Positions 5,909-46,189 are shown, counted from the stretch's first letter. The stretch: 46,189 nucleotides of DNA from an uncultured Acidobacteriota bacterium (GCA_964541595.1 CAZIRO010000001.1:1-46189), one strand, 5' to 3'. Made by a program: numbers and translations. The notes: a model not told the origin generated them from the sequence alone.

Positions 5909-5961
5909 ATCGTATCGTCCGTTTGGTGGCCCTCCATTTTGGGCACGGCAGCGGTGGGCCC

Positions 5962-15777: not shown

Positions 15778-15782
15778 ATGGC

Positions 15783-18776: not shown

Positions 18777-19565
18777 TCACCCGGTATCCGCGTTCCGTTC
18801 GATCTGGATCAGGACCACGGTAATATTGTCCGGTCCCCCGCGATCGTTCGCCGTCTGGATCAGATTGGCCACGGCTGCCTGAAGATCCGGCATATGCCGA
18901 TGGATCACATCGGCGATCTCCACATCGTCCAGTACCCCACTGAGGCCGTCCGTACAGAGCAACAGCAGATCTCCGGGTTCGAGGGGCTCCTCACCGATAT
19001 CCACCACGGGTTCCTGCGGTCCACCCAGGGCACGGGTCACGACATTGCGGAACGGATGGCTGCGGGCTTCTTCGGCGGAAATCAATCCCACCCGAATCTG
19101 TTCATTGACCCAGGAATGGTCCTGTGTCAACTGGATGATCCGTCCGCGCCGGATCAGATACCCGCGACTGTCGCCCACGTGTGCGATGATCGCCGATTCC
19201 ATTTCCGGATCGATCTTGGCCACCACGGCTGTCGTGGCCATTCCCTGCCATTCCGGATTTTCCCGGGTGGCTTCCAGGATCCTCTGATGCGCCATCAGCA
19301 TCGCGGCACGCAACATGTCTTCCGTACGTGCGGACGGATCCGTGATCCCTCCCGGCCAGGTGATGTCCAGATCTTCGTCAGCAGACCGCATGAACGCCAG
19401 GATCGTATCGACGGCAATCCGGGAAGCCTGTTCACCGGCAGCATGTCCCCCCATCCCATCCGCCACAATAAAAATCCCGCGTTTATCGTCAAAACCCCAG
19501 TAGTCCTCATTCTTGGAACGACGCCGACCGACGTCCGTCGCTCCACAAAACCGCCAGCGAATCAT
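18777..19565 (-). CDS. PP2C-family Ser/Thr protein phosphatase
   Basis: GATDVGRRRSKNEDY, VADGMGGHAAGE, LLLCTDGLSG and GGPDNITVVLI. Confidence 0.92.
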   Translation of the reverse strand: MIRWRFCGATDVGRRRSKNEDYWGFDDKRGIFIVADGMGGHAAGEQASRIAVDTILAFMRSADEDLDITWPGGITDPSARTEDMLRAAMLMAHQRILEATRENPEWQGMATTAVVAKIDPEMESAIIAHVGDSRGYLIRRGRIIQLTQDHSWVNEQIRVGLISAEEARSHPFRNVVTRALGGPQEPVVDIGEEPLEPGDLLLLCTDGLSGVLDDVEIADVIHRHMPDLQAAVANLIQTANDRGGPDNITVVLIQIERNADTG

Positions 19566-20714: not shown

Positions 20715-20891
20715 ATCAGGACGGGAAATGGGACACCGTGGGTCCCCATGCGGTCATGCGCTATCCCCAGCCCATGCGATGCCCCGTCTCCTGTCTTCCG
20801 TCTCCCGTCCCGGACACCCGGGACCTGACACCTGGGACCCGACACCCGATGTCGACCGGTCCATTCGATATCCCACTTCATGTCCCCGATC
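20715..20891. repeat. MITE-like intergenic element, copy B (degenerate termini)
   Basis: ATCAGGACGGGAAATGGGACA is at 20715-20735. Over the 58 nt from GAAATGGGACACC to CCATGCGATGC the core differs from copy C (28278-28335) at one position. A GGACCTGACACCTGGGACCCGACACC heptamer segment follows. The right end TCCCACTTCATGTCCCCGATC (20871-20891) is a degenerate inverted terminus. Confidence 0.65.
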
Positions 20892-20903: not shown

Positions 20904-21617
20904 TCATTCGTTCTTCTGTGCCCGGAAGACCACGTCCCTGCGGACTTCCCCCGGCGCACCCAGACGGTGCAATTTTCCGTTCACATACACGTCGATCCCC
21001 CCGGCATTGCCGACCGTCGCCAGCCGCACCACACGCGTGGCTTCCACCGTATAGACATCCCCGGCGCGCAGCGTACCCAGAAAGATACGCACATCATCCG
21101 CATAGATGTCCAGCCAGCAATTCTCCCGCGCGACGATCCGCACCCGTAACGGTGCGGCCGGCTCCGTTGCGGGGGCACGCGCAGCCGCATCCGTTTCACC
21201 GGATCGGACGGCAGGGGCTACCGGGGATTCTTCCCGTACAGTGGAGACAGAACCCGACTGCGGCGCACGGAACCATACGAATAATGCCCAGATGATGAAC
21301 AACCCCAATATGATGCCACCGGCGTATATCCACCGGTGGGCAAACGTCCGCGGAGGACGGGAAGGCGCCGGAATGGCGTCCAGCGCAGCCCATTTGTGTT
21401 CCAGATCGCGCCAGTCTTCTTCCGACAGTTCCAGACCGAGTAACTGCGCATACTGTCGGACAAACCCGCGCCGGTAAAACCCGCCCGGAAGACGGTGCCA
21501 CGCCTCTTCTTCCATCGCCCGGATGGTATACTCGGACAGTTTGAGCATCCCGGCAACCTGTCGCCGCGTCCAGCCGCGGGCTTCCCGTTGCTGTCGTAAC
21601 CGGGCACCGATACGCAT
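20904..21617 (-). CDS. rodZ: RodZ-like cytoskeleton protein (XRE-type HTH - TM - DUF4115)
   Basis: IGARLRQQREARGWTRRQVAGMLKLSEYTIRAMEEE (HTH). TM helix WIYAGGIILGLFIIWALFVWF. The C-terminal region reads CWLDIYADD...VYVNGKL. Confidence 0.8.
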   Translation of the reverse strand: MRIGARLRQQREARGWTRRQVAGMLKLSEYTIRAMEEEAWHRLPGGFYRRGFVRQYAQLLGLELSEEDWRDLEHKWAALDAIPAPSRPPRTFAHRWIYAGGIILGLFIIWALFVWFRAPQSGSVSTVREESPVAPAVRSGETDAAARAPATEPAAPLRVRIVARENCWLDIYADDVRIFLGTLRAGDVYTVEATRVVRLATVGNAGGIDVYVNGKLHRLGAPGEVRRDVVFRAQKNE

Positions 21618-25788: not shown

Positions 25789-25800
25789 GGATCACTCCAC

Positions 25801-26089
25801 AGGTGTCCGGTCCCAGGTGGCAGGTGTCGGGTCTCAGGTGGCAGGTCTCAGGTGTCAGGTCTCGTGTGTCCGGTGTTGAGTGCCCGGGCTCTGGTGGAGC
25901 GTTAACCGGTCATTCAACAGGTCATACCATGCCATGGATCGGGCTACGACCATTGGCAAGCACGGTCCTCCGGATGGTCGCAATTTGTCGCCCCCTACAA
26001 GGACCTGAGACCTGAGACCTGAGACCTGACACCTGGGACCTGCCACCTGAGACCTGCCACCTGAGACCCGACACCTGCCACCTGCCACC
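25801..26089. repeat. Giant inverted repeat built from heptanucleotide tandem arrays (AGGTNNC x11 / NACCTGN x12.5) around a ~125-nt spacer; fills the thrS-ftsY intergenic region
   Basis: The left arm (25801-25877) reads AGGTGTC CGGTCCC AGGTGGC AGGTGTC GGGTCTC AGGTGGC AGGTCTC AGGTGTC AGGTCTC... The right arm (26002-26089) reads GACCTGA x4 CACCTGG GACCTGC CACCTGA GACCTGC CACCTGA GACCCGA CACCTGC CACCTGC. GGCAGGTGTCGGGTCTCAGGTGGCAGGTCTCAGGTG is perfectly complementary between arms (36 nt). Confidence 0.85.
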
Positions 26090-28042
26090 TTACTGCACAT
26101 CCCACAGTTCCAGACGCCGATGCGTCACGAGATCACGAAAATGCGCAATGAGTTCATCCACCGATCGGGCACCCTGGTCCCCGATTCCGCGTACCCGTAC
26201 GGCAACCGTGTTGGACTGGACTTCCCGATCGCCGACCACCAGAATGAACGGTACCTTGAGCAGTTCCGCATCGCGAATCTTCGCGGAAACACGTTCATTG
26301 CGCAGATCGGCCTCGACCCGGAACCCTGCCGTAAACAGTTGCTGCCGGACCCGTTCCACATACTCCGCATGGCGATCGGCGATGGGAATAATGCGGATCT
26401 GGATCGGCGCGATCCAGAACGGAAACGCGCCCGCAAAGTGTTCGATGAGCACACCCATAAACCGTTCCACGGAACCGAAAATCGCCCGGTGAATCATTGT
26501 TACCCGATGAAACCGCCCGTCGCGTCCGACGTACTGGAGGTCAAACCGTTCCGGAAGATTGAAATCCACCTGGATGGTGGAACACTGCCACCATCGGCCG
26601 ATCGCGTCCCGGATTTTGAGATCGATCTTGGGACCGTAAAACACACCCTCGCCGGGATCGATCTCGTAGGGAATCCCCGCACGTTCCAGTGCGTTGCGCA
26701 GTGCCGCTTCGGCGATATCCCACATCTCGAGCGTTCCGACGAATTTTTCCGGTCGGGTCGACAGATATACGCTGTACTCATAAAACCCGAACGTCTGCAG
26801 GACATCACGCACGAAATCCAGCACCCCGAGGATCTCGTCCTCGATCTGGTCCTGCGTGCAGAAAATGTGAGAATCGTCCTGCGTAAACCCCCGAACCCGC
26901 AGCAACCCGTGCAGAACGCCCGACCGCTCGTACCGGTATACGGTACCGAACTCGAACAGCCGCATCGGCAGTTCGCGATAACTCCGGCGATGCGCCCTGT
27001 AGATCACGATATGAAACGGACAGTTCATCGGTTTCAGCTGGTACCGGGCCTTTTCCTGAAGTTCCATCGGGGGAAACATGTTTTCGCGGTAAAACTCCAG
27101 ATGGCCGCTCACCTGCCAGTGTTCAATGCGGGCGATATGCGGCGTGTACACAAACTGGTATCCCCGCCGGAAGTGTTCCGCATAGAGAAACTCCTCCAGT
27201 TGACGTCGGACGATTGCGCCGCGCGGGTGCCAGAGGATCAAACCGGGACCGATGGACTCCTGAATGGAAAACAGATCGAGTTCCCGTCCGAGTTTGCGAT
27301 GGTCCCGTCGCTGTGCTTCCTCCAGTTGATGTAAAAACGCTGCCAGCCGCGACTGCGTGGGGAAACAGGTACCATAAATGCGCTGTAACTGGGGATTCCG
27401 TTCATCCCCGCGCCAGTATGCACCGGACGTGGACAGCAGTTTGAACGCTTTCAGGTATCCCGTGGACGGGACATGCGGTCCCTTACAGAAATCGAGAAAC
27501 TCCGCCTGTTCGTAGCAACTTACCGGGTCGCCGCCTCGCTCCAGAATGAGTTCCACTTTAAACCGCTCGCCGCGCGATTCGAAATAACGCAGTGCCTGGT
27601 CCCGCGGCAGCCATCGATGCACGATCGGAATGTCCCGCTCGGCGAGTTCGCGCATGCGCTGTTCGATCTTCTGCAGGTCCTCCTCCGTAAACGGACGATC
27701 CCGCAGGAAATCATAGTAAAATCCCGTTTCAATGGGCGGACCGATCGCGAGTTTGGTCTCCGGATACAGCTGCTGCACCGCCTGCGCCAGCAGGTGCGCA
27801 CAACTGTGTCGATAAACTTCGAGTGCTTTCGGATGGTCCGGTGTGATGAGTTCATCTACCCGCAGGTCACGGTCCACACGTCGATGATGGTCCCAGTACT
27901 CTTCACCGGCACGCAGAAGGATGATCTCACGCGACCGTTCCGGATCGTACCTGCGCAGGACTTCCGCAATTTCCGTACCGGCGTCGACCTCGATCACGCG
28001 ACCATCCGGAAACTCCACCCGCACGGTGGACGCTGTACCCAT
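26090..28042 (-). CDS. thrS: Threonine--tRNA ligase
   Basis: N-terminal TGS domain, editing-domain HSCAHLL, class II core (FRRGYQFVYTPHI, RVRGFTQDDSHIF) and a C-terminal anticodon-binding domain. Confidence 0.96.
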   Translation of the reverse strand: MGTASTVRVEFPDGRVIEVDAGTEIAEVLRRYDPERSREIILLRAGEEYWDHHRRVDRDLRVDELITPDHPKALEVYRHSCAHLLAQAVQQLYPETKLAIGPPIETGFYYDFLRDRPFTEEDLQKIEQRMRELAERDIPIVHRWLPRDQALRYFESRGERFKVELILERGGDPVSCYEQAEFLDFCKGPHVPSTGYLKAFKLLSTSGAYWRGDERNPQLQRIYGTCFPTQSRLAAFLHQLEEAQRRDHRKLGRELDLFSIQESIGPGLILWHPRGAIVRRQLEEFLYAEHFRRGYQFVYTPHIARIEHWQVSGHLEFYRENMFPPMELQEKARYQLKPMNCPFHIVIYRAHRRSYRELPMRLFEFGTVYRYERSGVLHGLLRVRGFTQDDSHIFCTQDQIEDEILGVLDFVRDVLQTFGFYEYSVYLSTRPEKFVGTLEMWDIAEAALRNALERAGIPYEIDPGEGVFYGPKIDLKIRDAIGRWWQCSTIQVDFNLPERFDLQYVGRDGRFHRVTMIHRAIFGSVERFMGVLIEHFAGAFPFWIAPIQIRIIPIADRHAEYVERVRQQLFTAGFRVEADLRNERVSAKIRDAELLKVPFILVVGDREVQSNTVAVRVRGIGDQGARSVDELIAHFRDLVTHRRLELWDVQ

Positions 28043-28265: not shown

Positions 28266-28392
28266 GGATCGGGACAGGAAATGGGACACCGTGGGTACCC
28301 ATGCGGTCATGCGCTATCCCCAGCCCATGCGATGCTGGTCTTTCTAAGACCCGAACACCTGAGACCCGAGACCTGACACCTGATACCTGATC
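28266..28392. repeat. MITE-like intergenic element, copy C (left terminus, core and heptamer tail; no right terminus)
   Basis: ATCGGGACAGGAAATGGGACA is at 28268-28288. The core is nearly identical to copy B. The tail reads AGACCCGAACACCTGAGACCCGAGACCTGACACCTGATACCTGATC. Confidence 0.7.
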
Positions 28393-28400
28393 TTCCAATC

Positions 28401-29690
28401 CTAAAACCGATACAACAACAGGGTATCCAGCAGCGGTTTGAACGATTCGTCCCCGATCTGGCGGAAGATCACGCCGCCCCGGATGCGCATAAACAACCGG
28501 GGTGAAACGGGCCATTCGATTTCGATATGTGTGAAATTGTCCGCATACCGGAATCCCGAACGGCTCGGCAACCACTGATAAACCCGTGCCTGGGTGTGTA
28601 CACGCACCTGCACGCTACGGACGATCGTTATCAGCGCCGCATCCACGGTATAGAAATTCGTGTAATCGCTCCGGATGGCCTGTCCCCCGAGTTCAAGCCG
28701 AAACCATTTCCATTTCGGGGAACGCACCCATCCCGTGGCGATCCATCCGGAACGCACACCGCGCATATACCCGAACGACCCCCGCACGGCCCATTGACGT
28801 GTCCGAATCCCGACGACCGCCCGCAGATCACGAAACGTCGACGGTGGCGTTTCTGCGAACCGTCCGAAATAGGTCAATGTACGTACCTCGTCATAGACCC
28901 GCAACTGTTCCCAGGGATTTCGCCATTCCGACGCCATGAGACTGACGTAAACACGAGCACCGCGTACGGACACCTGCGCGGTGACACGTGTGCGGTCACG
29001 AATTTCCAGATCGTAGGCACCACCGACAAACACCCAGACGCGTCCCCGGGGGTTCCAGTGGATCTGCATCCCGATCTCCCGGGTTGTCCGCTGTTCCGTC
29101 GCGAGATGGACAAACCCGACCGACCACTGTAACCGGGAGGACGTCCAGCCCACGTTCCCGCACAACTGCACGCCGCCGCTGAGCGGTGCCCCGTGCCAGA
29201 TATCGATCGGACGACCCCCGGCGGCCCGTACCTGCCAGTGACCGACACGGACTTCCGTCCAGGCACCGTCCATCGGGTGGATCAATACACCGGCGACGTC
29301 TGGATACTGGCGTCCCAATCGCACGTTGACGTGATGGTTCGCAAGGCCGGCGATCTCAAGGTACGCGGTATGAAAGATGTGGCGGTTGCGGTAGGCCTCT
29401 GTGTAGATGAACTCTTCCGGTCGGCTCAGCTGGATATAGTGATGACTCCGATAGACCACCCGGATCCGATCGTTCCAGAATCCCAGTCGCAGGCGTCCCG
29501 TCAGGTGAAATCCGTTGTACTGTGTCGCCTGCACTGCAGATCCGATGAACCGGTAGTGCAGGTTGATGTACCCCTGCGCGATGACCCCCGACGGTGCGAT
29601 ATTCCCCTGCGCAACTGCCGTCGCGATCGGTATGGTCCATACGAGCCAGGCAATACCGATCAGACGCATCCATTCGCGCGCGGTCATCAT
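28401..29690 (-). CDS. Outer-membrane beta-barrel protein (429 aa), candidate porin partner of the adjacent multihaem cytochrome
   Basis: Signal peptide MMTAREWMRLIGIAWLVWTIPIATAVA-QG. Alternating-hydrophobicity strands throughout. The C-terminus ...LLLYRF ends in an aromatic residue. Its ATG (29688-29690) overlaps the TGA (29687-29689) of the cytochrome gene. Confidence 0.65.
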   Translation of the reverse strand: MMTAREWMRLIGIAWLVWTIPIATAVAQGNIAPSGVIAQGYINLHYRFIGSAVQATQYNGFHLTGRLRLGFWNDRIRVVYRSHHYIQLSRPEEFIYTEAYRNRHIFHTAYLEIAGLANHHVNVRLGRQYPDVAGVLIHPMDGAWTEVRVGHWQVRAAGGRPIDIWHGAPLSGGVQLCGNVGWTSSRLQWSVGFVHLATEQRTTREIGMQIHWNPRGRVWVFVGGAYDLEIRDRTRVTAQVSVRGARVYVSLMASEWRNPWEQLRVYDEVRTLTYFGRFAETPPSTFRDLRAVVGIRTRQWAVRGSFGYMRGVRSGWIATGWVRSPKWKWFRLELGGQAIRSDYTNFYTVDAALITIVRSVQVRVHTQARVYQWLPSRSGFRYADNFTHIEIEWPVSPRLFMRIRGGVIFRQIGDESFKPLLDTLLLYRF

Positions 29691-31990
29691 CCGCCCTCCT
29701 CTCCTTCGATTTCGAATCCACCGATATGACAATCCAGGCACCGGCCGCCACGGTCACCGGCATGGCCCCTGTGACAGTCGTGACAGGTATACTGAAACAT
29801 GTCTCCGGCGACCTTATGGCATACCGCACAGGCAATTCCCGCGTGAGTTCCGGTTTGCAGATTGAACCAGAACGGACTGTGCGCACCCTGCCACTTGTCC
29901 TGCAGGTGGCACTCCTGACAGTTCAAGCCGGCACCGTAGCGTGCATGCGGAAACGTTGCCGTGCGATAGTGTTTCTCATGACAGTCCGCACACTGCATGG
30001 GACGCGGGATGATCCGAAACGTCTGAACGTCGCGATGGCAATCGCCGCATTCCAGTGCCAGATGCGCGCCGACGAGCGGGAATCCCGTTTCCGCGTGGTC
30101 GAATGATACGACTCTCCATGCCGGCCAGCGGTGACACCGGTAACAGTCTGCCCCCATCGCGCCTTCATGGTAGTCCGTATGACAACTCGTGCAGTTCGTG
30201 GAAGCAGCGGTAAACCGGTGCTGCAAATGACACTGATTGCACCGAATGAGCGTGTGGAACACGAACAGGTCTTTCCGTTCATGGGTGTACTTCAACTGAT
30301 CCCAGGGCCCCGTGGGATCGTGGCAATCCGTACAGGCCATACGCAATGTCGGTTCGTGCGGACTCGTATGGCAACTATCGCATGCCGGTCGCAACTTCGT
30401 TTGCCAGTCCGTATGACAGGCGCGGCACGCGATCTCGGCGTGTCTGCCGGTCAGCGGAAACCCCGTCCGCGTATGGTCAAACGCCGTCGGCGGCCATCCC
30501 TCTGTGGAATGGCACCGCGCGCAGTTCTGACCGAACTGACCGTGATGCGGATCGCTGTGACAGTCCCGACACCGGATGCCCCGTACTCGGTATCCCGGCG
30601 GCATATGACACTGCGTGCACTGCACCTGCAGATGTCTGCCGGTCAGCGGGAATTTCGTCTGCGCGTGATCGAATGTGACCGCCGTCCACACGGTTTCCGC
30701 ATGACACCGGGTACAGTCCTGACCGAACGCACCCCGGTGCGGATCGGCATGACAGAGTTGACAATCACGCCCCGGCAGGTGCAACCCACCGCGTTCCTCC
30801 GTATGACACTGGCGACACTGTAGATCGAGGTGTGCACCCCGCAGGACAAACCCGGACACCCGGTGGTCGTATGTCGGAACGGACCACGCATCGAACATGT
30901 GACACGCGGTGCAGTCGCGGTATGCGACAACACGGCGGGGGTGCGGGGAACGGTGACAGCCGTCACAGGTGGTCGCGAGTTTCCGGCGGATTCCCATCCT
31001 GTGACACTCCTGACAGGCGATCATTGCGTGTTTCCCCAGTAACGGAAACCCCGTACGCGCGTGGTCGAACTGCTGCACGGTCCAGGTGCGTGTCGTGTGA
31101 CAGCGGGTACAGTCGGGGATCCGGATCCGCCGATGCGGATTCGTATGGCACCCCTGACACTGCAACGGTGTCCCCCGAAACCGATGCCCCGCATGACACC
31201 GCATACAGGTCAGCCGCCGATGCGCGCCCGTCAGTGGAAACCGGGTCCGATCGTGGTCAAACCCGGGGATCTCCACGAACGACGTCTCCACATGACAGTC
31301 CCGGCATCGCTGAGGCCGGAACTGACCCCGATGCGGATCCCGATGGCAACCGATACAGTCATCAAACCGTACGGACGCTTTGAACTGCGTGAGCGTCTGG
31401 CGATGACATTTTGCACAATCCACACGCACATGCGCACCACGCAGCGGGAACCGGGTTTGCCCGTGGTCGAACGATACGGGGGACCACGCCACTGTTGTAT
31501 GACAACCCGTACAGTCCGCGCCGAACCGCATGCCGTGTTTCGGCGCGTGACACGCATGACAGTCCGTGGGTGTGCCGAGGTATCGTGCCTTGCGGTGGCA
31601 CCGTGCACACGCGACATCAACGTGCGCCCCCGTCAGCGGGAAATCCGTTTGACGGTGATCGAAGGTCTCCGCATCCAGACGAACGAGTTGATAGTCCCGT
31701 CCCCGATGCTCGCTATGGCATTCCCAGCAGACCTGGTCTTTCGGGAGTCGACCGTGAAAACCGGTTCGATTGCGGACATCCTGTGCAACGGGTTCGTGAC
31801 AGGCCAGACACTTTTCGACCGCAGGACCGCGGCCGAATTCATGACATTTCGTGCAGTTGGTCACGCCGCGCAGTTTTTCATGGGGACGGGCCAGTTCACC
31901 CGGGGCGATCCACTGCGTCCACGCGATACGGGATATACCCAGACTCCATACAATGATCATCCAGCAGGTGCCACGCCACCTGGCGGCCAT
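29687..31990 (-). CDS. 33-haem c-type cytochrome built from ~11 tandem trihaem (c7/c3-like) modules
   Basis: I counted 33 CxxCH motifs in 767 aa. The unit FDH..T.FPL.G.H....C..CH-x11-C..CH..PH.G.F...C..CH....W recurs 8-9 times. The N-terminus is a hydrophobic signal-like segment. Confidence 0.92.
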   Translation of the reverse strand: MAARWRGTCWMIIVWSLGISRIAWTQWIAPGELARPHEKLRGVTNCTKCHEFGRGPAVEKCLACHEPVAQDVRNRTGFHGRLPKDQVCWECHSEHRGRDYQLVRLDAETFDHRQTDFPLTGAHVDVACARCHRKARYLGTPTDCHACHAPKHGMRFGADCTGCHTTVAWSPVSFDHGQTRFPLRGAHVRVDCAKCHRQTLTQFKASVRFDDCIGCHRDPHRGQFRPQRCRDCHVETSFVEIPGFDHDRTRFPLTGAHRRLTCMRCHAGHRFRGTPLQCQGCHTNPHRRIRIPDCTRCHTTRTWTVQQFDHARTGFPLLGKHAMIACQECHRMGIRRKLATTCDGCHRSPHPRRVVAYRDCTACHMFDAWSVPTYDHRVSGFVLRGAHLDLQCRQCHTEERGGLHLPGRDCQLCHADPHRGAFGQDCTRCHAETVWTAVTFDHAQTKFPLTGRHLQVQCTQCHMPPGYRVRGIRCRDCHSDPHHGQFGQNCARCHSTEGWPPTAFDHTRTGFPLTGRHAEIACRACHTDWQTKLRPACDSCHTSPHEPTLRMACTDCHDPTGPWDQLKYTHERKDLFVFHTLIRCNQCHLQHRFTAASTNCTSCHTDYHEGAMGADCYRCHRWPAWRVVSFDHAETGFPLVGAHLALECGDCHRDVQTFRIIPRPMQCADCHEKHYRTATFPHARYGAGLNCQECHLQDKWQGAHSPFWFNLQTGTHAGIACAVCHKVAGDMFQYTCHDCHRGHAGDRGGRCLDCHIGGFEIEGEEGG

Positions 31991-31993
31991 GGT

Positions 31994-34063
31994 TCATACT
32001 CCCGGCAGTGCGATACGCATGAGTTCAACGAACACGTCTCGACCGACGAAGAGGTATACCAGTCCCATATGCACAAAAAAGAGAGCAACCAGTGTCCACG
32101 CCAGCGTGCGATGAACGACTCGCCAGCGGCCCATCAGGTTCTGTACCGCCTTGATGATGGCGATCCAGTACGCGCGTTTGGCCATCTGACGGGTCAGTTG
32201 CTGGACCATATGCACGCGTTGCGCGTCTTCCGGCCGGTAGTTCGTCCGCAGGAATTCACGGACCGTATACAGCACGATCGCATATTTCAGATCGACCAAC
32301 ACCAACCGTGGCAGGACCCGCAACCCCTGTTTACCTTTGATCACACCGGTGTACTGGCGCGAGTCGATGATCGCGAGGATACCGTCCAGCGGGGCCTGCA
32401 ATTCGCGCAACCGACGTGCGATCGCATCGAACTCACTGTTCAATTCCCGCAGGCTTTTAATATGGCTTCCCATACTTTTTGGAATATGCGCATAAATATA
32501 CCTTCCGATCAATCCGGTGGCCACGACGACCAGGAGTCCGTAATAGGCCACCGCCAGGATGCGACTGACGTGAAACGCTGAATGGAACGTCAGTACCAGC
32601 CAGGCCGTGATGCCGGTCATCATGTGGAAGTCCAGCCAGCGATCCAGTGGTCCGGAACGGAAAATGCGTTTCTGTTTGCGCAGCAGGTATGAGAAATTGA
32701 AAAAGATCATGATCGCGCCGATCAACCCGAGGGTATGGCCGATCGTGCCACGCGACCGCAGGATGTCGTCGTACGGATGCGTGGGACGGTCGTGGAACGG
32801 CAGGGAGTAATAGTCATACCCGATCGCCATCAACCAGCCGACGCCGATAATGAGACAGAGTCCCCACAGGAAGATCAACGCCGACCACCAGTGTGTCTTC
32901 CAGTACCGGAGCGAAAAGACTTCCGGTCGCAACCAATCCGGTACGCGCACAACCCGTTCAGCCATGGCATCCTCCGATTGCCGGGATGATTCCACCGATG
33001 CGGTCGATGGCTCCACCGTTGAGGGGGCCGCGGGAGGCGCTGTCGGGGTCGCCACATCCAGTGATACGGACCCGGTGTGCACATCGTCCGACGCAGTGGT
33101 CTCCTGCAGGATCGGAGGAGTCTGGATCGTTTTCTGACGTGCCACTTCATTCAACGGTCGTTCGCCGATCCCGTGCAACAGCATCTGTTCACGCAGTTCG
33201 GGATGCTGCTGCCGAAACCGTGCGGCGACGACCTCGAGATCGCGTAATACCGCACGGGCACTGCCGTACCGCGTCTCCGGATCCTTGGCCAGTGCACGCA
33301 TCACGATCCGTTCAAGGTCCTCCACAAACGGCAGATCCGGCGCAACCGTCGATAGCCGCGGCGGATCTTCATGCACGATCTTGTACGCCACCGCCGTCGG
33401 GTGTTCGCCCTCAAACGGCCGGTGATACGTCATGAGTTCAAAGAGCACCACACCGAGCGCAAAAATGTCCGTACGGTGGTCGATGCGTTCTTTTTCGTCC
33501 CGAACCTGTTCTGGACTCATGTAATGCGGGGTCCCCATGAGCACCTGTGTCTGTGTGAACCGCTCACTGACGAGTTTGGCTACACCGAAATCCATGACTT
33601 TGACCCGACCATCCGGAAGGATCCGGATGTTCGAGGGTTTGATATCACGGTGAATGACTCCATGCGCATGGGCATACGCCAGCGCATCGCACACCTGCAT
33701 GAGGATGTGCATTTTCTGTAAAAACGGTATCGACACCCGCTGCTCGATCAGTTCCGAAAGGTTGTGTCCCGGTAGATACTCCATTGCGATAAACGGCTGG
33801 CCCTCATGTTCCCCCACGTCATAAATGGCCACAATATTCGGATGGTGTAACCGGCCGGCGGCACGTGCTTCGCGAATAAACCGGGCACGAATTTTGTCAT
33901 CAAACGCAAGTTCCGGACGGATGATCTTGATGGCGATCGTGCGGTCGATCGCCGGATCGTACGCAGCCAGGACGATTCCCATCCCCCCATAGCCGATGAC
34001 CGTTTCTACACGATACCGCCCGATCCGTGTGGGAATGGCCGTTTGCGACCGGGAATCGGTCAT
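31994..34063 (-). CDS. Hanks-type Ser/Thr kinase fused to a C-terminal polytopic membrane module with two H-x13-H helices
   Basis: Kinase motifs are GYGGMGIV, IAIKII, HRDIKPSNI, DFGVAK and GTPHYMSPE. After a Pro/Ala/Ser linker come ~5 TM helices. His480/His494 sit in DFHMMTGITAWLVLTFH and His651/His665 in VVHRTLAWTLVALFFVH. The stop lies 3 nt before the 33-haem gene start. Confidence 0.9.
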   Translation of the reverse strand: MTDSRSQTAIPTRIGRYRVETVIGYGGMGIVLAAYDPAIDRTIAIKIIRPELAFDDKIRARFIREARAAGRLHHPNIVAIYDVGEHEGQPFIAMEYLPGHNLSELIEQRVSIPFLQKMHILMQVCDALAYAHAHGVIHRDIKPSNIRILPDGRVKVMDFGVAKLVSERFTQTQVLMGTPHYMSPEQVRDEKERIDHRTDIFALGVVLFELMTYHRPFEGEHPTAVAYKIVHEDPPRLSTVAPDLPFVEDLERIVMRALAKDPETRYGSARAVLRDLEVVAARFRQQHPELREQMLLHGIGERPLNEVARQKTIQTPPILQETTASDDVHTGSVSLDVATPTAPPAAPSTVEPSTASVESSRQSEDAMAERVVRVPDWLRPEVFSLRYWKTHWWSALIFLWGLCLIIGVGWLMAIGYDYYSLPFHDRPTHPYDDILRSRGTIGHTLGLIGAIMIFFNFSYLLRKQKRIFRSGPLDRWLDFHMMTGITAWLVLTFHSAFHVSRILAVAYYGLLVVVATGLIGRYIYAHIPKSMGSHIKSLRELNSEFDAIARRLRELQAPLDGILAIIDSRQYTGVIKGKQGLRVLPRLVLVDLKYAIVLYTVREFLRTNYRPEDAQRVHMVQQLTRQMAKRAYWIAIIKAVQNLMGRWRVVHRTLAWTLVALFFVHMGLVYLFVGRDVFVELMRIALPGV

Positions 34064-34231
34064 GGATACGTTTCCCCCTTCACGTGTGCAGCATGGCCCA
34101 TGCGCAGAGGCCGCGCGGGAACGGTGGTACCGCCCGTCCCCACGCGGCCGGGTCTGTGACCGTGCGCGTCCCGGACACGCCCGCCATGGGTATCCTATCG
34201 AACGGGGGTCCAGGCACGCAACGGGACGGGA

Positions 34232-35149
34232 TCAGAAACGGTGGATGGTGTCCAGGAGATACCGATGATACCAGTCTCGTGCCGGTGGAAATCCCGTGCG
34301 TCCGGATGCCCGGGTGGTCAACGATTCGTCTTCCGCGTCGTCATCGTCGTCACCACCACCCTTGCACTCCTTCCCGGACCACTTGTCGCCGTGACACCTG
34401 TAACAGGACGGTTCCCCGTTCGGTCCGCCCCGCAAGTCCGCACCATGACACGGGGCACAGTCACGCTGGGGTTTACACCAGTCCTGCGCATGCGCCACAT
34501 TGTCTTCAATCTTGTTATGCTGCGTCTTCCCGCAGTTCATCCACTTCCGTTGATCGTGACACTGCAAACAGGACGGTTCCCCGTTCACACCGCCGCGCAG
34601 GTCGTCCCCATGACAACGGCCGCAGTTCTCATACGGCGAGCAGTACCCGGAAGCATGCATCGCGCCACCGAGATTCACATCGTGGGATGCATTCTGTCCG
34701 CAGGTGTTCCACAGGGCGCCGTGACACTGGAAACAGGACGGTTCCCCGTTCGCGCCACCTTTCAGATCCGCGCCGTGACAGGATGCACAGTTTTGCTGCG
34801 GGGAACAGTATCCGGCTGCATGCATCACGCCGTTGATGTTGACATCGTGGACCGCATTCTGTCCGCAGGTGTTCCATAGAGCGCCGTGACACTGCAAACA
34901 GGACGGTTCCCCGTTCGCGCCACCTTTCAGATCCGTACCATGGCAGGCCGCACAGTTCGCCTGGGGTTGACAGTACCCCTGCGCGTGATTAAACCCGCCG
35001 ATAACCACATCGTGCGGTGTCGGTTGTGCGCGGCCGGTCCCACCGGTACCGGCCTGCATCGGGTTGTCGACCTGAAAACACCCGACAAGCGTGATCAACC
35101 CGAACCCGCAACACATCCCCACAACGATCCACCGCAACATGCGTACCAT
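34232..35149 (-). CDS. Octahaem c-type cytochrome lipoprotein (4 x 54-aa dihaem tandem repeats)
   Basis: Lipobox LITLVG-C. There are 8 CxxCH motifs. The repeat unit is H.....G..HA.GYC.P..NC..CHG.DL.GG.NGEPSC.QCHG. SD GGAGAGGG lies upstream of the ATG at 35149. Confidence 0.88.
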   Translation of the reverse strand: MVRMLRWIVVGMCCGFGLITLVGCFQVDNPMQAGTGGTGRAQPTPHDVVIGGFNHAQGYCQPQANCAACHGTDLKGGANGEPSCLQCHGALWNTCGQNAVHDVNINGVMHAAGYCSPQQNCASCHGADLKGGANGEPSCFQCHGALWNTCGQNASHDVNLGGAMHASGYCSPYENCGRCHGDDLRGGVNGEPSCLQCHDQRKWMNCGKTQHNKIEDNVAHAQDWCKPQRDCAPCHGADLRGGPNGEPSCYRCHGDKWSGKECKGGGDDDDDAEDESLTTRASGRTGFPPARDWYHRYLLDTIHRF

Positions 35150-35411: not shown

Positions 35412-35996
35412 TCATTCAGGCATCCATTCCCCGATACGTACCACACGGATCGTCCCATCGGGCAGACGCACGGTCGCCATCTGCGGATACAGGGCGATAC
35501 ACACCGTTCCCGGAGACACCGCTTCACCGACCGACCGCCAGACCGTCTGCGCACCGTTCGTCCACACACTGACGAGGACACCGCCGCTATCGACGATCCC
35601 GATCAATCGCCATCTCCCGTGCGGTGTCCTCCGCTGTTCCCGTGCGGGGGATACAGACGGTGTCGTACGGTCGGATCCACGTTTCCGGGGGGAGGACGCG
35701 TGCATGCGCACGGACGGAGACTGCTGCGCGGGCGCATTTTGCATGCCGAACCGGAACAGATCCCGGGCAACGGTCTCATTCGGATTGTTGTCCGGTTGAT
35801 CGTCGTGTCGTGTAGTGACCGGCATCCGGATACCGCAATTCGCCCGATCGGGCATCGGGACATCCGCACCGATCGTGCGGGGAGGATACATCTGTCCGGA
35901 CGGTACCGGCAACCGTGTTCCCAGGAACAGAAACACCCCGACGTAGATCCCGATCAGCACTCCGGCAACGGCCAGTGAAGGCCGCGCACGCATCAT
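35412..35996 (-). CDS. Membrane-anchored protein with PilP/GspC-like C-terminal beta domain (194 aa)
   Basis: TM helix LAVAGVLIGIYVGVFLFLG. The C-terminus RWRLIGIVDSGGVLVSVWTNGAQTVWRSVGEAVSPGTVCIALYPQMATVRL resembles PilP/GspC HR domains. ATGA overlap (35993-35996) with the upstream gene. Confidence 0.45.
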   Translation of the reverse strand: MMRARPSLAVAGVLIGIYVGVFLFLGTRLPVPSGQMYPPRTIGADVPMPDRANCGIRMPVTTRHDDQPDNNPNETVARDLFRFGMQNAPAQQSPSVRMHASSPRKRGSDRTTPSVSPAREQRRTPHGRWRLIGIVDSGGVLVSVWTNGAQTVWRSVGEAVSPGTVCIALYPQMATVRLPDGTIRVVRIGEWMPE

Positions 35997-37057
35997 ACGT
36001 CGCCGCCTTGGATACCCTGGATCTGTTCGAGCCATCGGCGCACCACATTGCGATACATGCGGAGTCGGTGCACCACCCGGTTCAGATCTTCCGGTGATCC
36101 GATCCGGGCAGTCAATTCCAGTTGTTGTCCCTCCCACATCCGCGGCGGTCGGAGTATGATCCCCGCATCCGCCAGCGGCCGCATATCACGGGCAAACGCC
36201 GCATCCAGTGCGGCCAGTTCCGGGTACCGTGCCGCATACGCGGCCCTTTGCAGGGTCGTCCGATCCCATCTCTTCATCTGAGCCGTCCATCCCATTCTAT
36301 CAAAGAGCGCATCCAGATGGGTAATTCCTTCTCGATGCATACAATCCGACCAGTACTCCCAGACGGTCTGCCATTCACTGTGACTCAATCGCAATCGTTG
36401 CACCACCTCGGTCCACAGTTGCCGGCGAAACGATTCCGTACGGCAGTGGGCGAGCACGACACCGACAACCGGCGACAGGCGGTGGTGATGGATCCGTTCC
36501 AGCCATTCCGGATCCAGCCGTGCACAGACGACAGTCGTCCGAAATACGGACGAACGGGGATGTAATGTCCAGATCTGAAGGAACCATTGTGCAACTTCCG
36601 GCATCCGTTGCAGAAACGCTGCGCCGGGGCATCCCGGCAGTCCCTGACCTGCGCGCTGAACGATGCGTGCGAGCTCAATCGGCGAAAACGTTCGATGGAT
36701 GTTTTCCGCACGGTATATCCACAGCGCGAACATCCAGTCGATGGTCCCACCTTCCGGCGGACGACCGTGCGCCGGATACATCATCGATGTGTATGCCTGC
36801 ACGGCGGACGCGGTCCATACGAATGCGGGAATTGCGGACATGCGCTGTTGACGTGCATACCACCAGCGACGAAACCCGTGGACCAGCCCGTACCGTTTCG
36901 GACGCAGGTACAATACGGCGATCGGCCAACCGGTCGGTAACGAATGGGATACAGGGGCAAAATCCACGACCGGACTGACAAATCCCGACGGGTCTTCCAG
37001 CACGATCTGCGATACGGGGATGCGTCGCAGCGTGATTCGAACCGAACGTGTCGTCAT
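35993..37057 (-). CDS. Hypothetical protein with ParB/Srx-like N-terminal domain (354 aa)
   Basis: IPVSQIVLED...PIAVLYLRPKRYGLVHGFRRWWYARQQRMSAIPAFVW resembles the ParB N-terminal fold (G.RR..A motif). The start is placed at ATG 37055-37057, 10 nt after the ThiD-like stop. Confidence 0.4.
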   Translation of the reverse strand: MTTRSVRITLRRIPVSQIVLEDPSGFVSPVVDFAPVSHSLPTGWPIAVLYLRPKRYGLVHGFRRWWYARQQRMSAIPAFVWTASAVQAYTSMMYPAHGRPPEGGTIDWMFALWIYRAENIHRTFSPIELARIVQRAGQGLPGCPGAAFLQRMPEVAQWFLQIWTLHPRSSVFRTTVVCARLDPEWLERIHHHRLSPVVGVVLAHCRTESFRRQLWTEVVQRLRLSHSEWQTVWEYWSDCMHREGITHLDALFDRMGWTAQMKRWDRTTLQRAAYAARYPELAALDAAFARDMRPLADAGIILRPPRMWEGQQLELTARIGSPEDLNRVVHRLRMYRNVVRRWLEQIQGIQGGDV

Positions 37058-37067
37058 TCCGGACGAT

Positions 37068-37874
37068 TCACACACGGGGGATATACAGATTGAGCGGGTG
37101 GTACTCTCCCCGACCGATCTCAAACGCATGCTGCATGGCGCGACCGATAAACCGTTTGGCCGTTTCCACCGCCTGTTCAATGGAAATCCCCTGTGCGCTG
37201 AGGATCGCGATCAGTGTGGCAAACACCGTACCCACACCGAGTCGATTCGGTCGGGGGACCCACGGGTGTTCGGCCACCCGATGCCGTCGACCATCGAAAA
37301 TCACGTCGCTTGCACGGATCAGTGCCCGCAGTCGACCGCCGGTGACGATGACCGTGGGGAATCCGTACTGCTCGTGAATGCGTTCCGCAGCGGAGCGCAT
37401 ATCCGCCAGGGAGGCAACCTCGTCCATTTCTGCGAGGATGGCCGCCTCTTCGACGTTCGGTGTGATGATATTTGCGGCATCCCGGAAGACCGCGACCCAT
37501 TCACGGTACACGCTCACGTCGGGGAACACCGGATATCCGCGTGTGGTCCGATAGACCGGATCCAGCACGATGGGAATCCGCAAATCGCGTACGGTATCCG
37601 CGATCAGGCGCGCCGTGGACAGGTCCGGGACAATCCCGATTTTGACGGACGTCAGATCAAAATCCTGCCGCAGGGCCTCCAGTTGGGCACCGACGTGTTC
37701 AATCGGTACGTGATAAATTCCCTCAATGGTCTGTGTGTTTTGTGCGATCACGGCCGACACGACGGCGACCCCGAACACGCGATACACCTGCATGGTGCGG
37801 ATATCCACCAGGATGCCCTCGCATCCCGACGGGTCAAAGGCATCCACGATCAAACCGATGCGTTGCACCTGCAC
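37068..37874 (-). CDS. ThiD-like (hydroxymethylpyrimidine/phosphomethylpyrimidine kinase family) ribokinase-fold protein, divergent
   Basis: VKIGIVP, IVLDPV, ITPNVEEAAIL and VIVTGG...GVGTVFATLIAILSAQG match the ThiD/PdxK layout. The N-terminal glycine-rich motif is diverged (DPSGCEGILVDIRT). GTG start. Confidence 0.65.
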   Translation of the reverse strand: MQVQRIGLIVDAFDPSGCEGILVDIRTMQVYRVFGVAVVSAVIAQNTQTIEGIYHVPIEHVGAQLEALRQDFDLTSVKIGIVPDLSTARLIADTVRDLRIPIVLDPVYRTTRGYPVFPDVSVYREWVAVFRDAANIITPNVEEAAILAEMDEVASLADMRSAAERIHEQYGFPTVIVTGGRLRALIRASDVIFDGRRHRVAEHPWVPRPNRLGVGTVFATLIAILSAQGISIEQAVETAKRFIGRAMQHAFEIGRGEYHPLNLYIPRV

Positions 37875-42734: not shown

Positions 42735-43382
42735 TCAGCCCAAATAAAATAGCAAACCGAACAGGTAGATCCAAACAATGTCCACAAAATGCCAGTACGT
42801 CGCCGCGAGTCCCACACCGGGGTGGTACGGCGTGTAGACCCCCCGACGCGCCCGCAGGAAAACGACGATCAGGGCCACAAGTCCGCCGAACAGGTGCAAT
42901 GCGTGGACCGCCGTCAACAGATAGAAAAACGAACTGTGCGGGTTCGTGGGCAGGTAAATGCCCTGTGCCTGCAATTGTCGCCAGGCGATATACTGCCCGA
43001 TGAGAAACACCAGCCCGAGTCCCGCGGTAATGAGCAACCACCGTTGCAGTGCTTCCGTCGCCCATCGTTTCAGTTGCCGCCGGGCTATCTCCATCGTCAC
43101 ACTGCTGGCGATGAGGATTACCGTATTGAACCACAGGATCGGAGGCATCCGGATCGGCTGCCAGTCAGCGCCGGCCCGGCGGGCGATATACGCACTGCTG
43201 AACCCCGCAAAGAGCATGGTCGCCGTCGCCAGAAAGGCCCACAACCCGATCTGTTTCGTATGAATGGGCAGTGCACCCTCGTTTTCGGGATAGGGCCCCT
43301 CACCGCCGTTACCGTTACCGTTCGTATCTACGGGCACGTCGAGACCGGATTCGCCGGTTCCCGAATGCACCCATCGGGTCAT
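42735..43382 (-). CDS. ctaE: Cytochrome c oxidase subunit III
   Basis: FYLLTAVHALHLFGG and TYWHFVDIVWIYLF. ATGA overlap with ctaD (43379-43382). Confidence 0.9.
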   Translation of the reverse strand: MTRWVHSGTGESGLDVPVDTNGNGNGGEGPYPENEGALPIHTKQIGLWAFLATATMLFAGFSSAYIARRAGADWQPIRMPPILWFNTVILIASSVTMEIARRQLKRWATEALQRWLLITAGLGLVFLIGQYIAWRQLQAQGIYLPTNPHSSFFYLLTAVHALHLFGGLVALIVVFLRARRGVYTPYHPGVGLAATYWHFVDIVWIYLFGLLFYLG

Positions 43383-45172
43383 GCGTGCACCTCGACACCG
43401 ACTTTTTCGGGTTCCAGATGCTGCGGAATGTGGTCGTCCGGTGCGCCGGGAACGCTGTATTCATACGGGCCACGGTACACCGCCGGTACCGGACCGTCCC
43501 AGTTGCCATGCGGCGCCGGAGATTCCGTGGTCCACTCGAGCGTGTTCGCCCGCCACGGATTCCGGTCCGCTTTCTTGCCCCTGAACATGCTCCAGAAGAA
43601 GTTGAACAGGAAGATGAACTGCGCCGCACCGAGGACAAACGCGCTGATACTGATCCAGACGTTCAGCGGTTGCAGGGGTTTGAGGAAATCGTACTGCGTG
43701 GGATCGTAGATCCGGCGCATCATACCGCCCATGCCGAGGTAGTACATCGGGAAGAACGTCGAATAGTACGTGATGAACGTCAACCAGAAGTGAATCTTGC
43801 CGAGCGTTTCGTTCATCATTCGCCCGAACATCTTGGGAAACCAGTAATACGTTCCAGCAAACACACCGAACAACGCCGCGCCGGCCATAATGAGATGGAA
43901 ATGACCGACCACAAAATACGTATCGTGCATCTGAATATCGATCGGCGGCTGTCCCAGCCAGAGACCGCTCAGGCCACCGCTGATGAACAGTGACACGATA
44001 CCCAGCGCAAACAGCATGGGCGTTGTAAACCGGATCCGCGCCCGCCACAGGGTCGTCAACCAGTTGAACACCTTGATCGCCGACGGGACGGCGATCAACA
44101 GGGTGAACGTGGCAAACGCCATACCGAGATAGGGACTCATCCCGCTGACGAACATGTGGTGGCCCCAGACGAGAAAACTGAGCACCGATATCGCCCAGAT
44201 CGCATAGACCATTGACTTATAACTGAAGATCGGTTTCCGGCTGAAGACGGTAATGATATCCGAGGTGATCCCCATGGCCGGGAGCATCAGGATGTACACT
44301 TCCGGATGTCCGAGAAACCAGAACAGATGCTGCCATAACAGCGGGGACCCGCCCTGTGTGGTCAAACCCTGCTGGATCTCCACCACGTGTCCACCGATGT
44401 ACAGTCCCTGCGGGAGGAAGAAACTCGTGCCCAGATGCCGGTCAAAGAGTAACATGATCGCACCTGCCGTCAGTGCGGGAAACGAAAGCAGTCCCAGAAT
44501 GGCGACACAGAACAGCGCCCAGGTCGTCAACGGCAACCGCATCATCGACATGCCCCGCGTGCGCAGGTTGAGCACCGTCGTGACAAAATTGAGTCCCCCC
44601 ATGGTAAACGATGCGATGAAAAAGACCATCCCGATGATCCATAGCGTCTGTCCCAACCCCGATCCGGGGATGGCTTCCCGCAAAGCACTCAACGGTGGAT
44701 ACGCCGTCCATCCGGCAGCGGCTGCTCCGCCCTCCACAAAGAAGGACGAGAGAATGACAATGCAGCCGATAAAGAAGGTCCAGTACGACAGCATGTTCAG
44801 GAAGGGAAACGCCATGTCGCGCGCACCGATCTGCAACGGGATCAGGAAGTTGCCGAACCCGCTCACCGGTGCGGTCGACAGTACAAAGAACACCATCAGG
44901 GTCCCATGCATGGTAAACAGCATGGGATAAAACTCGGGTTTCATCAATCCCGTCTGCAGATCAAACCCGGCCGGAAGCAACTTGGCAAGCCAGGTCTGTC
45001 CCAGTTGCGGCCACGCGAGTTGAATACGGATCAGCATCGCAAGCAAACCGGCGACGATGGCCATAAAGATCGCCGTAATGTAATACTGTTTGGCAATGAC
45101 CTTATGGTCCATGCTGAAGACATATTTTCGAATGAAACTCTGCGGTTCCGTGTGATGGTTGTGTTGCGCCAT
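43379..45172 (-). CDS. ctaD: Cytochrome c oxidase subunit I (haem-copper oxidase, A-family)
   Basis: WFLGHPEVYILMLPAMG, GHHMF and HDTYFVVGHFH. The start is placed at the ATG (45170-45172) 4 nt after GGAGGG; longer in-frame starts are at 45184 and 45208. Confidence 0.95.
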   Translation of the reverse strand: MAQHNHHTEPQSFIRKYVFSMDHKVIAKQYYITAIFMAIVAGLLAMLIRIQLAWPQLGQTWLAKLLPAGFDLQTGLMKPEFYPMLFTMHGTLMVFFVLSTAPVSGFGNFLIPLQIGARDMAFPFLNMLSYWTFFIGCIVILSSFFVEGGAAAAGWTAYPPLSALREAIPGSGLGQTLWIIGMVFFIASFTMGGLNFVTTVLNLRTRGMSMMRLPLTTWALFCVAILGLLSFPALTAGAIMLLFDRHLGTSFFLPQGLYIGGHVVEIQQGLTTQGGSPLLWQHLFWFLGHPEVYILMLPAMGITSDIITVFSRKPIFSYKSMVYAIWAISVLSFLVWGHHMFVSGMSPYLGMAFATFTLLIAVPSAIKVFNWLTTLWRARIRFTTPMLFALGIVSLFISGGLSGLWLGQPPIDIQMHDTYFVVGHFHLIMAGAALFGVFAGTYYWFPKMFGRMMNETLGKIHFWLTFITYYSTFFPMYYLGMGGMMRRIYDPTQYDFLKPLQPLNVWISISAFVLGAAQFIFLFNFFWSMFRGKKADRNPWRANTLEWTTESPAPHGNWDGPVPAVYRGPYEYSVPGAPDDHIPQHLEPEKVGVEVHA

Positions 45173-45195
45173 GGCACCCTCCATATATGGACGGC

Positions 45196-46053: not shown

Positions 46054-46189
46054 ACCCCACCCTCCAGCAGCAAATTCGTATAGACACCGCACCGGTGATC
46101 ATGCAATCGGAAATACCACGCGAGGGGGGAACGCCAGCCGCGTTCTGTACATTCTGGACACGACACCGCGTTCTATTCTAATCGAATCC

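Follow-up and report, generated by a model that had tools for sequence, protein, structure and literature searches.

A cluster of four genes in a 46,189-nucleotide stretch of DNA from an uncultured Acidobacteriota bacterium (GCA_964541595.1 CAZIRO010000001.1:1-46189; the whole stretch is called the window here) is best read, with some reserve, as a PCC3-type porin-cytochrome cluster. The cluster lies on the minus strand at positions 28401 to 35149 and is predicted to provide an electron path across the cell envelope, with a Hanks-type Ser/Thr kinase as a lineage-specific addition. The genes encode an octahaem lipoprotein, a kinase fused to a polytopic inner-membrane module (IMP), a 33-haem cytochrome, and an outer-membrane beta-barrel. 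The kinase fusion is new and was found in one genome; an inner-membrane di-histidine module in a porin-cytochrome operon was already known.

Four consecutive co-directional open reading frames (ORFs) were found on the minus strand, all of them where an initial annotation of the window had placed them. Read 5′ to 3′, the first (34232-35149) encodes an octahaem c-type lipoprotein of 305 residues, the second (31994-34063) a 689-residue fusion protein, the third (29687-31990) a 767-residue c-type cytochrome with a Sec signal peptide and 33 CxxCH motifs, and the fourth (28401-29690) a 429-residue outer-membrane beta-barrel with a signal peptide, a C-terminal YRF, and 22 predicted strands. Within the fusion ORF, residues 1 to 290 (33194-34063) form a cytoplasmic Hanks-type Ser/Thr kinase domain, residues 291 to 366 (32966-33193) form a linker rich in Pro, Thr, Ala, and Ser (PTAS), and residues 367 to 689 (31994-32965) form the IMP with five transmembrane (TM) segments. 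The TGA stop codon of the fusion ORF is followed by ACC and then by the ATG of the 33-haem gene, giving a 3-nucleotide spacer. The ATG of the barrel gene shares bases with the TGA of the cytochrome gene (ATGA) and is preceded by AGGAGG. We conclude that the fusion, 33-haem, and barrel genes are tightly coupled and that the initial annotation was right about the four-gene cluster, its 8 plus 33 CxxCH motifs, and its junctions.

The IMP carries two pairs of conserved histidines. Its hydrophobic segments lie at approximately residues 396 to 414, 443 to 461, 476 to 497, 502 to 524, and 647 to 673 of the fusion protein, and W-x3-H-x13-H motifs start at residue 476 on TM3 (residues 476 to 494, nucleotides 32582-32638; His480 and His494) and at residue 647 on TM5 (residues 647 to 665, nucleotides 32069-32125; His651 and His665). 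A cytoplasmic helical insert of approximately 120 residues (525 to 645) lies between TM4 and TM5, and the positively charged loops (residues 462 to 475 and the insert) are on the same side. In an alignment of seven homologues 23 to 57% identical to the window module (alignment A1), all four His, numbered H121, H135, H292, and H306 there, were invariant. TM4 contained an invariant G-x-x-G-R-Y-I-Y preceded by T or S, with TGLIG at residue 516 in the window and SG in the homologues P0007 and P0008. The AlphaFold2 model of the module was all-helical, with a predicted local distance difference test (pLDDT) score of 77.

The same signature runs through a large protein family. An exhaustive profile search with the module returned 4,323 cluster representatives at an E-value of ≤0.001, and 598 at ≤1e-30. 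Among the best 150 representatives were 104 stand-alone proteins, every one of which carried two H-x13-H motifs and 97 of which carried both complete W-x3-H-x13-H motifs; across 100 family sequences, three of the four His were invariant and the fourth was at least 90% conserved. A Pfam scan of 100 members gave matches to DUF4405 in 57, Ferric_reduct in 27, and Ni_hydr_CYTB in 25, all of them sub-threshold with family-wide best E-values of 1e-6 to 3e-5, and unrelated families recurred in no more than two members. The window module itself matched Ferric_reduct (E = 0.011 to 0.046) and Ni_hydr_CYTB (E = 0.0044), both sub-threshold. Haem b binding has been demonstrated for a purified DUF4405 protein (PMC11334425). 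Moreover, the four conserved His sit in two TM helices at a spacing suited to two haems across the membrane. We conclude that the IMP is a predicted dihaem b-type cytochrome, on the basis of motif conservation and weak profile similarity.

Synteny indicated that the cluster is conserved as a unit and that the kinase is not part of that unit. The order octahaem gene, IMP gene, 33-haem gene, and barrel gene recurs in L004 (metagenome REYS20), in L005 (Logan SRR11582170), and in L007, an Acidobacteriota metagenome-assembled genome (MAG; CAYREJ010000125.1) that holds the nearest complete cluster among species-representative genomes. The last three genes occur in the same order in L001, L002, and L003 (JOHN19), and adjacency of the barrel to the cytochrome is conserved in L001 through L005 and L007. 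The IMP of L004, L005, and L007 is a stand-alone protein of 318 to 323 residues that starts 51 to 130 nucleotides past the stop codon of the octahaem gene, too short a gap to hold a kinase gene, and the conserved unit is therefore the four-gene cluster without the kinase. Thus, the porin-cytochrome-type cluster proposed by the initial annotation is borne out by synteny and by the predicted 22-strand outer-membrane barrel, and its four-gene order does recur elsewhere, but as octahaem, IMP, 33-haem, and barrel genes with the kinase absent. The kinase was rejected as a conserved component of the system, as it is missing from all homologous clusters; in every one of them, the module either stands alone or is linked to a reductase.

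A scan of species-representative genomes extended the family to nine loci (L007 through L015), the labels of which include Acidobacteriota, Elusimicrobiota, Polyangia, Anaeromyxobacter (Myxococcota), Eisenbacteria, and Planctomycetota MAGs. A c7-repeat multihaem gene homologous to the 33-haem gene directly follows the IMP gene in eight of the nine, as it does in L004 through L006; in the ninth, L014, the sequence ends approximately 450 nucleotides after the IMP gene. Several of the nine also have a barrel-like ORF after the cytochromes. We conclude that the locus family appears to extend PCC3-type clusters beyond the Proteobacteria.

The more distant relatives connect the IMP to a source of electrons. 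Reductases were counted over nine distant loci (L006 and L008 through L015, with the close relative L007 left out), and in eight of them the IMP was either fused to or directly preceded by a membrane-anchored reductase with two [4Fe-4S] ferredoxin motifs and a Pyr_redox_3 FAD/NAD(P)H domain. The reductase and IMP are fused in L006 (9117-11359), L009 (8594-10882), L011 (1230 to approximately 3200), L012 (8054-10813), and L014 (1971-4319), and the reductase is a separate gene upstream of the IMP in L008 (4083-5498), L010 (8460-9893), and L015 (8335-9651). Multihaem cytochromes and barrel-like ORFs come after these genes. The reductase was matched by 31 of the 150 best family representatives, with full-length fusions of approximately 735 to 761 residues, and the public label of such proteins reads only "NAD(P)-binding domain-containing protein." An electron-transfer role of the module is supported by these relatives because they carry a ferredoxin-flavin reductase at the same N-terminal position. 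Moreover, as the reductases precede TM1, the N terminus before TM1 should be cytoplasmic, which fits the presence of a kinase at that position in the window. The arrangement of the distant loci is NOX/FRE-like, with a cytoplasmic pyridine-nucleotide reductase, a predicted transmembrane dihaem module, and a periplasmic haem wire.

Two of the distant loci showed further features. The ferredoxin-reductase-IMP gene of L006, on a 275-kb contig, looks frameshifted, its three overlapping ORFs (9117-9986, 9529-10962, and 10001-11359) matching consecutive segments of the L009 protein, which is intact. Both L006 and L009 have a Hanks kinase approximately 5 kb upstream of the reductase-IMP-cytochrome cluster (3298-5379 and 2633-5080, respectively) and a response-regulator gene just downstream (16165-18096 and 15527-17050, respectively); the L006 regulator has a sigma-54 activator domain, and the L009 gene starts with the same N-terminal sequence. 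In genomes rich in kinases, these upstream genes may be there by chance, or they may point to a regulatory connection. Myxococcota are kinase-rich. The two kinases were rejected as evidence of a general kinase link, since the loci look like Myxococcota and the kinases are not adjacent to the IMP.

The protein encoded directly after the IMP has properties expected of a wire. Its 33 CxxCH motifs, with no CxxxCH or CxxxxCH, amount to one haem per 23 residues and are arranged as 11 c7-like triheme units with a period of 62 to 82 residues (62 to 73 after the first interval). Pfam Cytochrome_C7 matched in eight stretches (E = 1e-29), and a phmmer search against the PDB gave no significant match. With 73 His in total in this protein and 18 in the octahaem lipoprotein, both cytochromes have enough additional His for bis-His ligation to be possible. 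The mature N terminus, right after the signal peptide, reads Q-(W/F/I)-(I/F)-(A/S)-P-G-x-L-x-x-x-H, a sequence kept in both the window and the distant loci; the module may dock at this end. The 12-haem c7 polymer GSU1996 is approximately 12 nm long, and by that measure 33 haems could span a periplasm of 20 to 30 nm. We conclude that the 33-haem protein is a predicted periplasm-spanning wire. One homologue is hidden in the public record: the two calls at 164-2446 of L003 (382 and 352 residues, minus strand) are antisense artefacts, and the plus strand, within the ORF at 2-2476, holds the real gene, which encodes a cytochrome with 33 CxxCH motifs.

The barrel appears to be dedicated to that cytochrome. 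Its AlphaFold2 model has 22 beta-strands and a mean pLDDT of 78, and Foldseek matched it to outer-membrane barrels with a probability of 1.0. The matches were generic (Occ/OprD, FimD, and AlgE; TM-score of 0.35 to 0.45 and 7 to 10% identity), with MtrB absent from the 50 best and no matching model in Pfam or NCBIfam. Among 5.8 billion protein clusters, only two barrel homologues were found, P0002 (47% identical) and P0003 (39% identical), and two further copies were found on fetched contigs (L005 and L007). In every case, a homologue of the 33-haem gene lies immediately upstream of the barrel gene, which argues that the barrel is a dedicated cytochrome partner and not the unrelated nutrient porin that the initial annotation had considered as the counter-case. 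An Occ/OprD- or OmpF-type nutrient porin was likewise rejected, because the Foldseek matches are no more than generic and the barrel gene keeps strictly to the neighborhood of cytochrome genes. The 22-strand barrel of TonB-dependent receptors holds a plug of approximately 150 residues, and a barrel of that size would therefore be wide enough for a haem chain.

The octahaem protein is a candidate terminal cytochrome at the outer membrane or the cell surface. It has eight CxxCH motifs and no CxxxCH or CxxxxCH, matches Pfam Cytochrom_c3_2 and Cytochrome_C7, and consists of four dihaem repeats of approximately 55 residues. Its signal peptide ends in the lipobox L-V-G-C (Cys24); the L005 homologue keeps the lipobox Cys, followed by F-(Q/K)-(V/I)-(D/N)-N-P. 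Homologues with eight CxxCH motifs hold the same position in L004, L005, and L007, and a phmmer search against the PDB gave no significant match. A 165-bp tandem repeat lies inside the gene (34555-35014; 2.4 to 2.8 copies, 76 to 80% DNA identity), which suggests that the 55-residue dihaem unit was amplified fairly recently.

The kinase fused to the IMP is an intact member of a common family. Residues 17 to 270 matched Pkinase (PF00069; E = 2.4e-51) above the curated cutoff, and the NCBIfam PknB-type kinase region matched with an E-value of 5e-105, below the full-length cutoff. All catalytic motifs are present: GYGGMG (GxGxxG), AIK (VAIK-type Lys), HRDIKPSN, DFG, and SPE. A second kinase of 622 residues, encoded in the window at 16628-18496, 13.5 kb away, is 52% identical to the fused kinase domain and adjoins a PP2C phosphatase gene (18777-19565), followed by a 355-residue ORF and RodZ (20904-21617). 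The orthologue of this second kinase in L016 (P0184) has the context RodZ, hypothetical protein, PP2C, kinase. The fused kinase probably arose from the second one, its paralogue, and the PP2C is a candidate phosphatase for both. The kinase domains nearest to the fused one (55 to 57% identical), that of P0184 among them, belong to ordinary kinases in unrelated neighborhoods. Thus, the kinase has a phylogenetic distribution independent of the cluster, a finding that the initial annotation itself had named among those that would count against its reading. The simplest history is that a housekeeping receptor kinase was duplicated and that the copy was inserted between the octahaem and IMP genes.

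Taken together, the cluster would work as a chain. Two b haems, one per face of the inner membrane, would be held by the module between His480 and His651 and between His494 and His665. The exported 33-haem chain would bridge the periplasm, its N terminus perhaps facing the module and its C-terminal end perhaps entering the barrel, and the chain would end, at the outer membrane or cell surface, with the octahaem lipoprotein as terminal cytochrome. Electrons might be taken up from Fe(II)-like donors or passed to external acceptors. Where relatives have NAD(P)H-reductase fusions, these suggest outward flow. Oxidase genes near the cluster (COX2/COX1/COX3 by Pfam, 42735-46092) would suit electron uptake for aerobic respiration in the window. 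Those genes lie 7.6 kb away and support the initial annotation's placing of an oxidase at 7 kb; the designation aa3 is read from the Pfam families.

The kinase copy between the octahaem and module genes would be joined through its PTAS-rich linker to TM1, so that the module would take the place of the usual TM-plus-sensor part of a Hanks kinase. As a sensor, the haem module would convert its redox state or the electron flux into Ser/Thr phosphorylation of cytoplasmic targets or of its own loop of approximately 120 residues. Sensing is the most likely role of the kinase and serves as our working model; alternatives are that the conduit is gated through the phosphorylated cytoplasmic insert or that there is no functional link. 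The larger claim, that the fusion is real and the dihaem module is the sensor of a Hanks kinase that reports electron flux by Ser/Thr phosphorylation, is one that we regard as possible but not probable. Under this claim, the PP2C gene 13 kb away would be a possible antagonist, and the N terminus of the IMP would be a plug-in site that carries nothing, an NAD(P)H-flavin-FeS reductase, or a kinase. The proposal of the initial annotation, that phosphorylation reads out the redox state or gates the conduit, is a hypothesis that rests on one ORF in one contig.

A number of points, given here and below beside the alternatives that they favor, count against this model. Every Pfam match of the module is below its curated threshold, a Foldseek search of the module model against the PDB gave no match at an E-value of ≤0.001, and a profile search of the module alignment against PDB sequences gave nothing meaningful. 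Among the best 150 IMP representatives, the window protein (P0011) alone has both kinase and IMP; a search with the full-length fusion found no other protein that covered more than 56% of it, and the IMP profile was found in none of the 119 best kinase homologues. JGI metagenome contigs, scanned for proteins closely related to the module as independent confirmation of the fusion, gave no confirmed match. Finally, a dependence of kinase activity on haem redox state is assumed in this model. In the literature library searched, there was no paper with both "threonine kinase" and "porin-cytochrome," and no kinase within porin-cytochrome clusters.

One possible, if doubtful, explanation is that the fusion is real but neutral, TM1 being a mere anchor for a kinase that signals something unrelated or is decaying, while the conduit works as it does in the relatives. 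All other clusters lack the kinase, the kinase family is abundant and mobile among contexts, and a retained internal start codon, described below, could supply a normal IMP. Against this explanation, all catalytic motifs of the kinase have been kept despite divergence to 52% identity from the paralogue, which argues for long-standing purifying selection. Moreover, the position before TM1 is also used by reductase domains, which points to a functional attachment point.

The linker bears on whether there is a fusion at all. It would be a single-base indel in this low-complexity sequence, either a MAG assembly error or a very recent mutation, that had merged two genes: one for a soluble kinase of approximately 368 residues ending at a TGA at 32958-32960 and one for a 323-residue IMP with its own GGAGG. 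An intact Shine-Dalgarno sequence, GGAGG (32971-32975), lies within the fusion ORF 5 nucleotides 5′ of the ATG of Met367 (32963-32965), and Met367 aligns with the start of stand-alone IMPs (P0004 and P0005). Frame +2 is open back to codon 306 and runs into the TGA 2 nucleotides after the Met367 ATG (ATGGCTGA), as at a typical coupled-gene junction. Because of the internal GGAGG-ATG and the frame +2 TGA, one indel in the linker would be enough to separate the kinase from the IMP. Furthermore, the coding signal is weak in all three frames in 30-codon windows starting at codons 320 to 350, the codon-usage score showing no preference for frame 0 there, and no second occurrence of the fusion was found. 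These features are compatible with an indel artefact or with a frameshift of very recent date. Nevertheless, frame 0 is uninterrupted in the sequence given, and its linker is PTAS-rich like that of the paralogue, whereas the frame +2 translation is rich in Gly, Asp, Arg, and Cys. TM1 of the IMP, starting at residue 396, sits where the paralogue has its single TM segment (approximately residue 400), and a kinase ending in a linker with neither TM segment nor sensor would be atypical. The chance that an off-frame stretch of approximately 60 codons stays open at this G+C content is roughly 0.15 (a rough estimate, not computed). We conclude that two separate genes are unlikely and that the kinase-IMP fusion is quite likely real; through the internal GGAGG-ATG, the same mRNA may also give rise to an IMP that lacks the kinase.

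The remaining alternative, that the cluster is not an extracellular conduit but a periplasmic electron store or soluble-substrate reductase with the barrel as a secretion or assembly pore or a substrate channel, draws on the description of PCC3 in the literature as "functionally unverified," on the lack of a specific match between the barrel and a solved porin-cytochrome barrel (MtrB fell outside the 50 best Foldseek matches), and on the assumed surface exposure of the octahaem lipoprotein, whose 8 haems are fewer than the 10 to 39 reported for PCC3 extracellular cytochromes, but is quite improbable, as the barrel is strictly co-inherited with the multihaem genes, its start codon overlaps the cytochrome stop codon in the window, a barrel of 22 strands would be wide enough for a haem chain, and 23 residues per haem is the density of the proposed wire-like PCC3 cytochromes.

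A scan for more multihaem genes or a ferredoxin-flavin reductase found none in the window, and consensus promoter and terminator sites were no more numerous than in shuffled sequence. Rfam detected a single tRNA and no rRNA. No classical terminators stand out in the window. Tandem arrays of 7 and 14 nucleotides (ACCTGAG, ACCTGAC, and GACACCTG, with their complements) occupy intergenic gaps at 25800-25876, 26003-26090, 28347-28390, 20813-20848, and 4855-4882, including the ftsY-thrS and thrS-barrel gaps; they resemble a genome-specific intergenic repeat family and possibly punctuate the sequence or stand in for terminators. A 260-nucleotide non-coding stretch with an AT-rich patch precedes the octahaem gene; the two ORFs beyond it (35412-36137 and 35993-37180) overlap each other and match no family, and the homologous contigs do not reach as far as these ORFs. 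Positions 1 to 6000 have a G+C content of 0.49 to 0.51, against 0.56 to 0.62 elsewhere. This stretch contains a 919-residue ORF (84-2843) with internal tandem repeats of 12 to 27 nucleotides, followed by approximately 3 kb with short ORFs only, up to the tRNA gene at 5835-5908, and may be foreign or degenerate DNA.

PCC3-type clusters are widespread candidates for microbial iron oxidation and for electron exchange with minerals, and the locus and its relatives add to their scope a 33-haem wire and an IMP family of 4,323 cluster representatives. The reductase fusions point to NOX-like, quinone-independent electron input for some conduits, as opposed to the quinone-linked model of 2017. If the kinase fusion is real and functional, the locus would be an unusual redox conduit wired directly to eukaryotic-like phosphosignalling, and the fusion would offer a natural handle on how cells sense extracellular electron flow.

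The closest known system is PCC3, and the likeness to it (in Gallionellaceae, Leptothrix, and other Proteobacteria) was drawn from published descriptions. He et al. (2017, Front Microbiol 8:1584) reported that the predicted PCC3 and PCC4 systems include a conserved IMP of approximately 300 residues and five TM segments, with SGXXG on TM4 and W-x3-H-x13-H on TM3 and TM5, and proposed that it holds two b-type haems, as in the ferric-reductase domain (PMC5566968). The initial annotation had taken known systems to lack a b-type-like module in the inner membrane; PCC3 and PCC4 carry an IMP of this same signature (PMC5566968). The window shares with PCC3 a porin, a haem-rich periplasmic cytochrome, a second multihaem cytochrome, and an IMP of approximately 300 residues with five TM segments, (S/T)GxxG on TM4, and two W-x3-H-x13-H motifs. 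The PCC3 cytochrome of Leptothrix cholodnii has 24 haems in eight repeats at a 66-residue spacing and that of the Riftia symbiont has 21 haems in seven repeats of 66 residues (PMC5566968). Gallionellaceae PCC3 periplasmic cytochromes have 21, 24, or 27 haems, and the window protein, built on similar triheme repeats of approximately 66 residues, has 33 in 11 repeats. The L. cholodnii porin has 22 TM regions and that of the Riftia symbiont has 40 (PMC5566968), the former equal to the 22 strands predicted for the window barrel. The window differs from PCC3 in its second cytochrome, a lipoprotein with just 8 haems, in the size of its barrel, which most PCC3 porins exceed (with up to 42 TM regions), and in the fusion of its IMP to a Hanks kinase. 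Furthermore, the relatives found here carry no Proteobacteria label, the nearest complete cluster being in an Acidobacteriota MAG.

Other conduits share parts of the arrangement. PCC4 has an IMP with the same five-TM, HX13H signature; in its subgroup II, the gene immediately before that of the IMP encodes an Fe-S protein and is sometimes annotated as fused to it, which recalls the ferredoxin-flavin reductase-IMP fusions of the window's distant relatives. PCC4 differs in its periplasmic cytochromes, which are three small proteins with 4, 5, and 10 haems, and lacks an extracellular cytochrome; the window has neither an Fe-S nor a flavin reductase gene. MtrCAB of Shewanella and OmaB/OmbB/OmcB of Geobacter follow the same logic, with an outer lipoprotein cytochrome, a cytochrome in a barrel, and an outer-membrane barrel sheath. 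The window proteins have no Pfam or NCBIfam match to an Mtr family, the cytochromes matching only c7/c3-type models, and the cluster lacks the combination of an MtrB/PioB-family porin with a decahaem MtrA-family cytochrome that defines MtrCAB, MtoAB, and PioAB. In those systems, the periplasmic partners are decahaem or octahaem proteins and the quinol dehydrogenases (CymA, ImcH, and CbcL) are separate and encoded elsewhere; the window has a 33-haem wire and a dedicated membrane module in one operon.

The IMP and the kinase each have relatives outside the conduits. Like NOX, FRE, MsrQ, and DUF4405 proteins, the IMP is a helical bundle in which TM3 and TM5 each carry a pair of His 13 residues apart, and its distant relatives share with NOX and FRE an NAD(P)H-flavin reductase on the cytoplasmic side. 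In contrast to ferric-reductase-domain proteins, the window IMP has five rather than six TM segments and an insert of approximately 120 residues between TM4 and TM5, and the reductase of IMP relatives is at the N terminus, not the C terminus. Compared with PknB-like receptor kinases, built of a kinase domain, a PTAS linker, one TM segment, and an extracytoplasmic sensor, the window protein is typical in its kinase domain, linker, and distance to the TM segment, and the window also encodes a PP2C phosphatase and a paralogous kinase. The fusion protein differs from them in that the TM segment and sensor (such as PASTA or TPR) are replaced by a polytopic, putative haem-b module.

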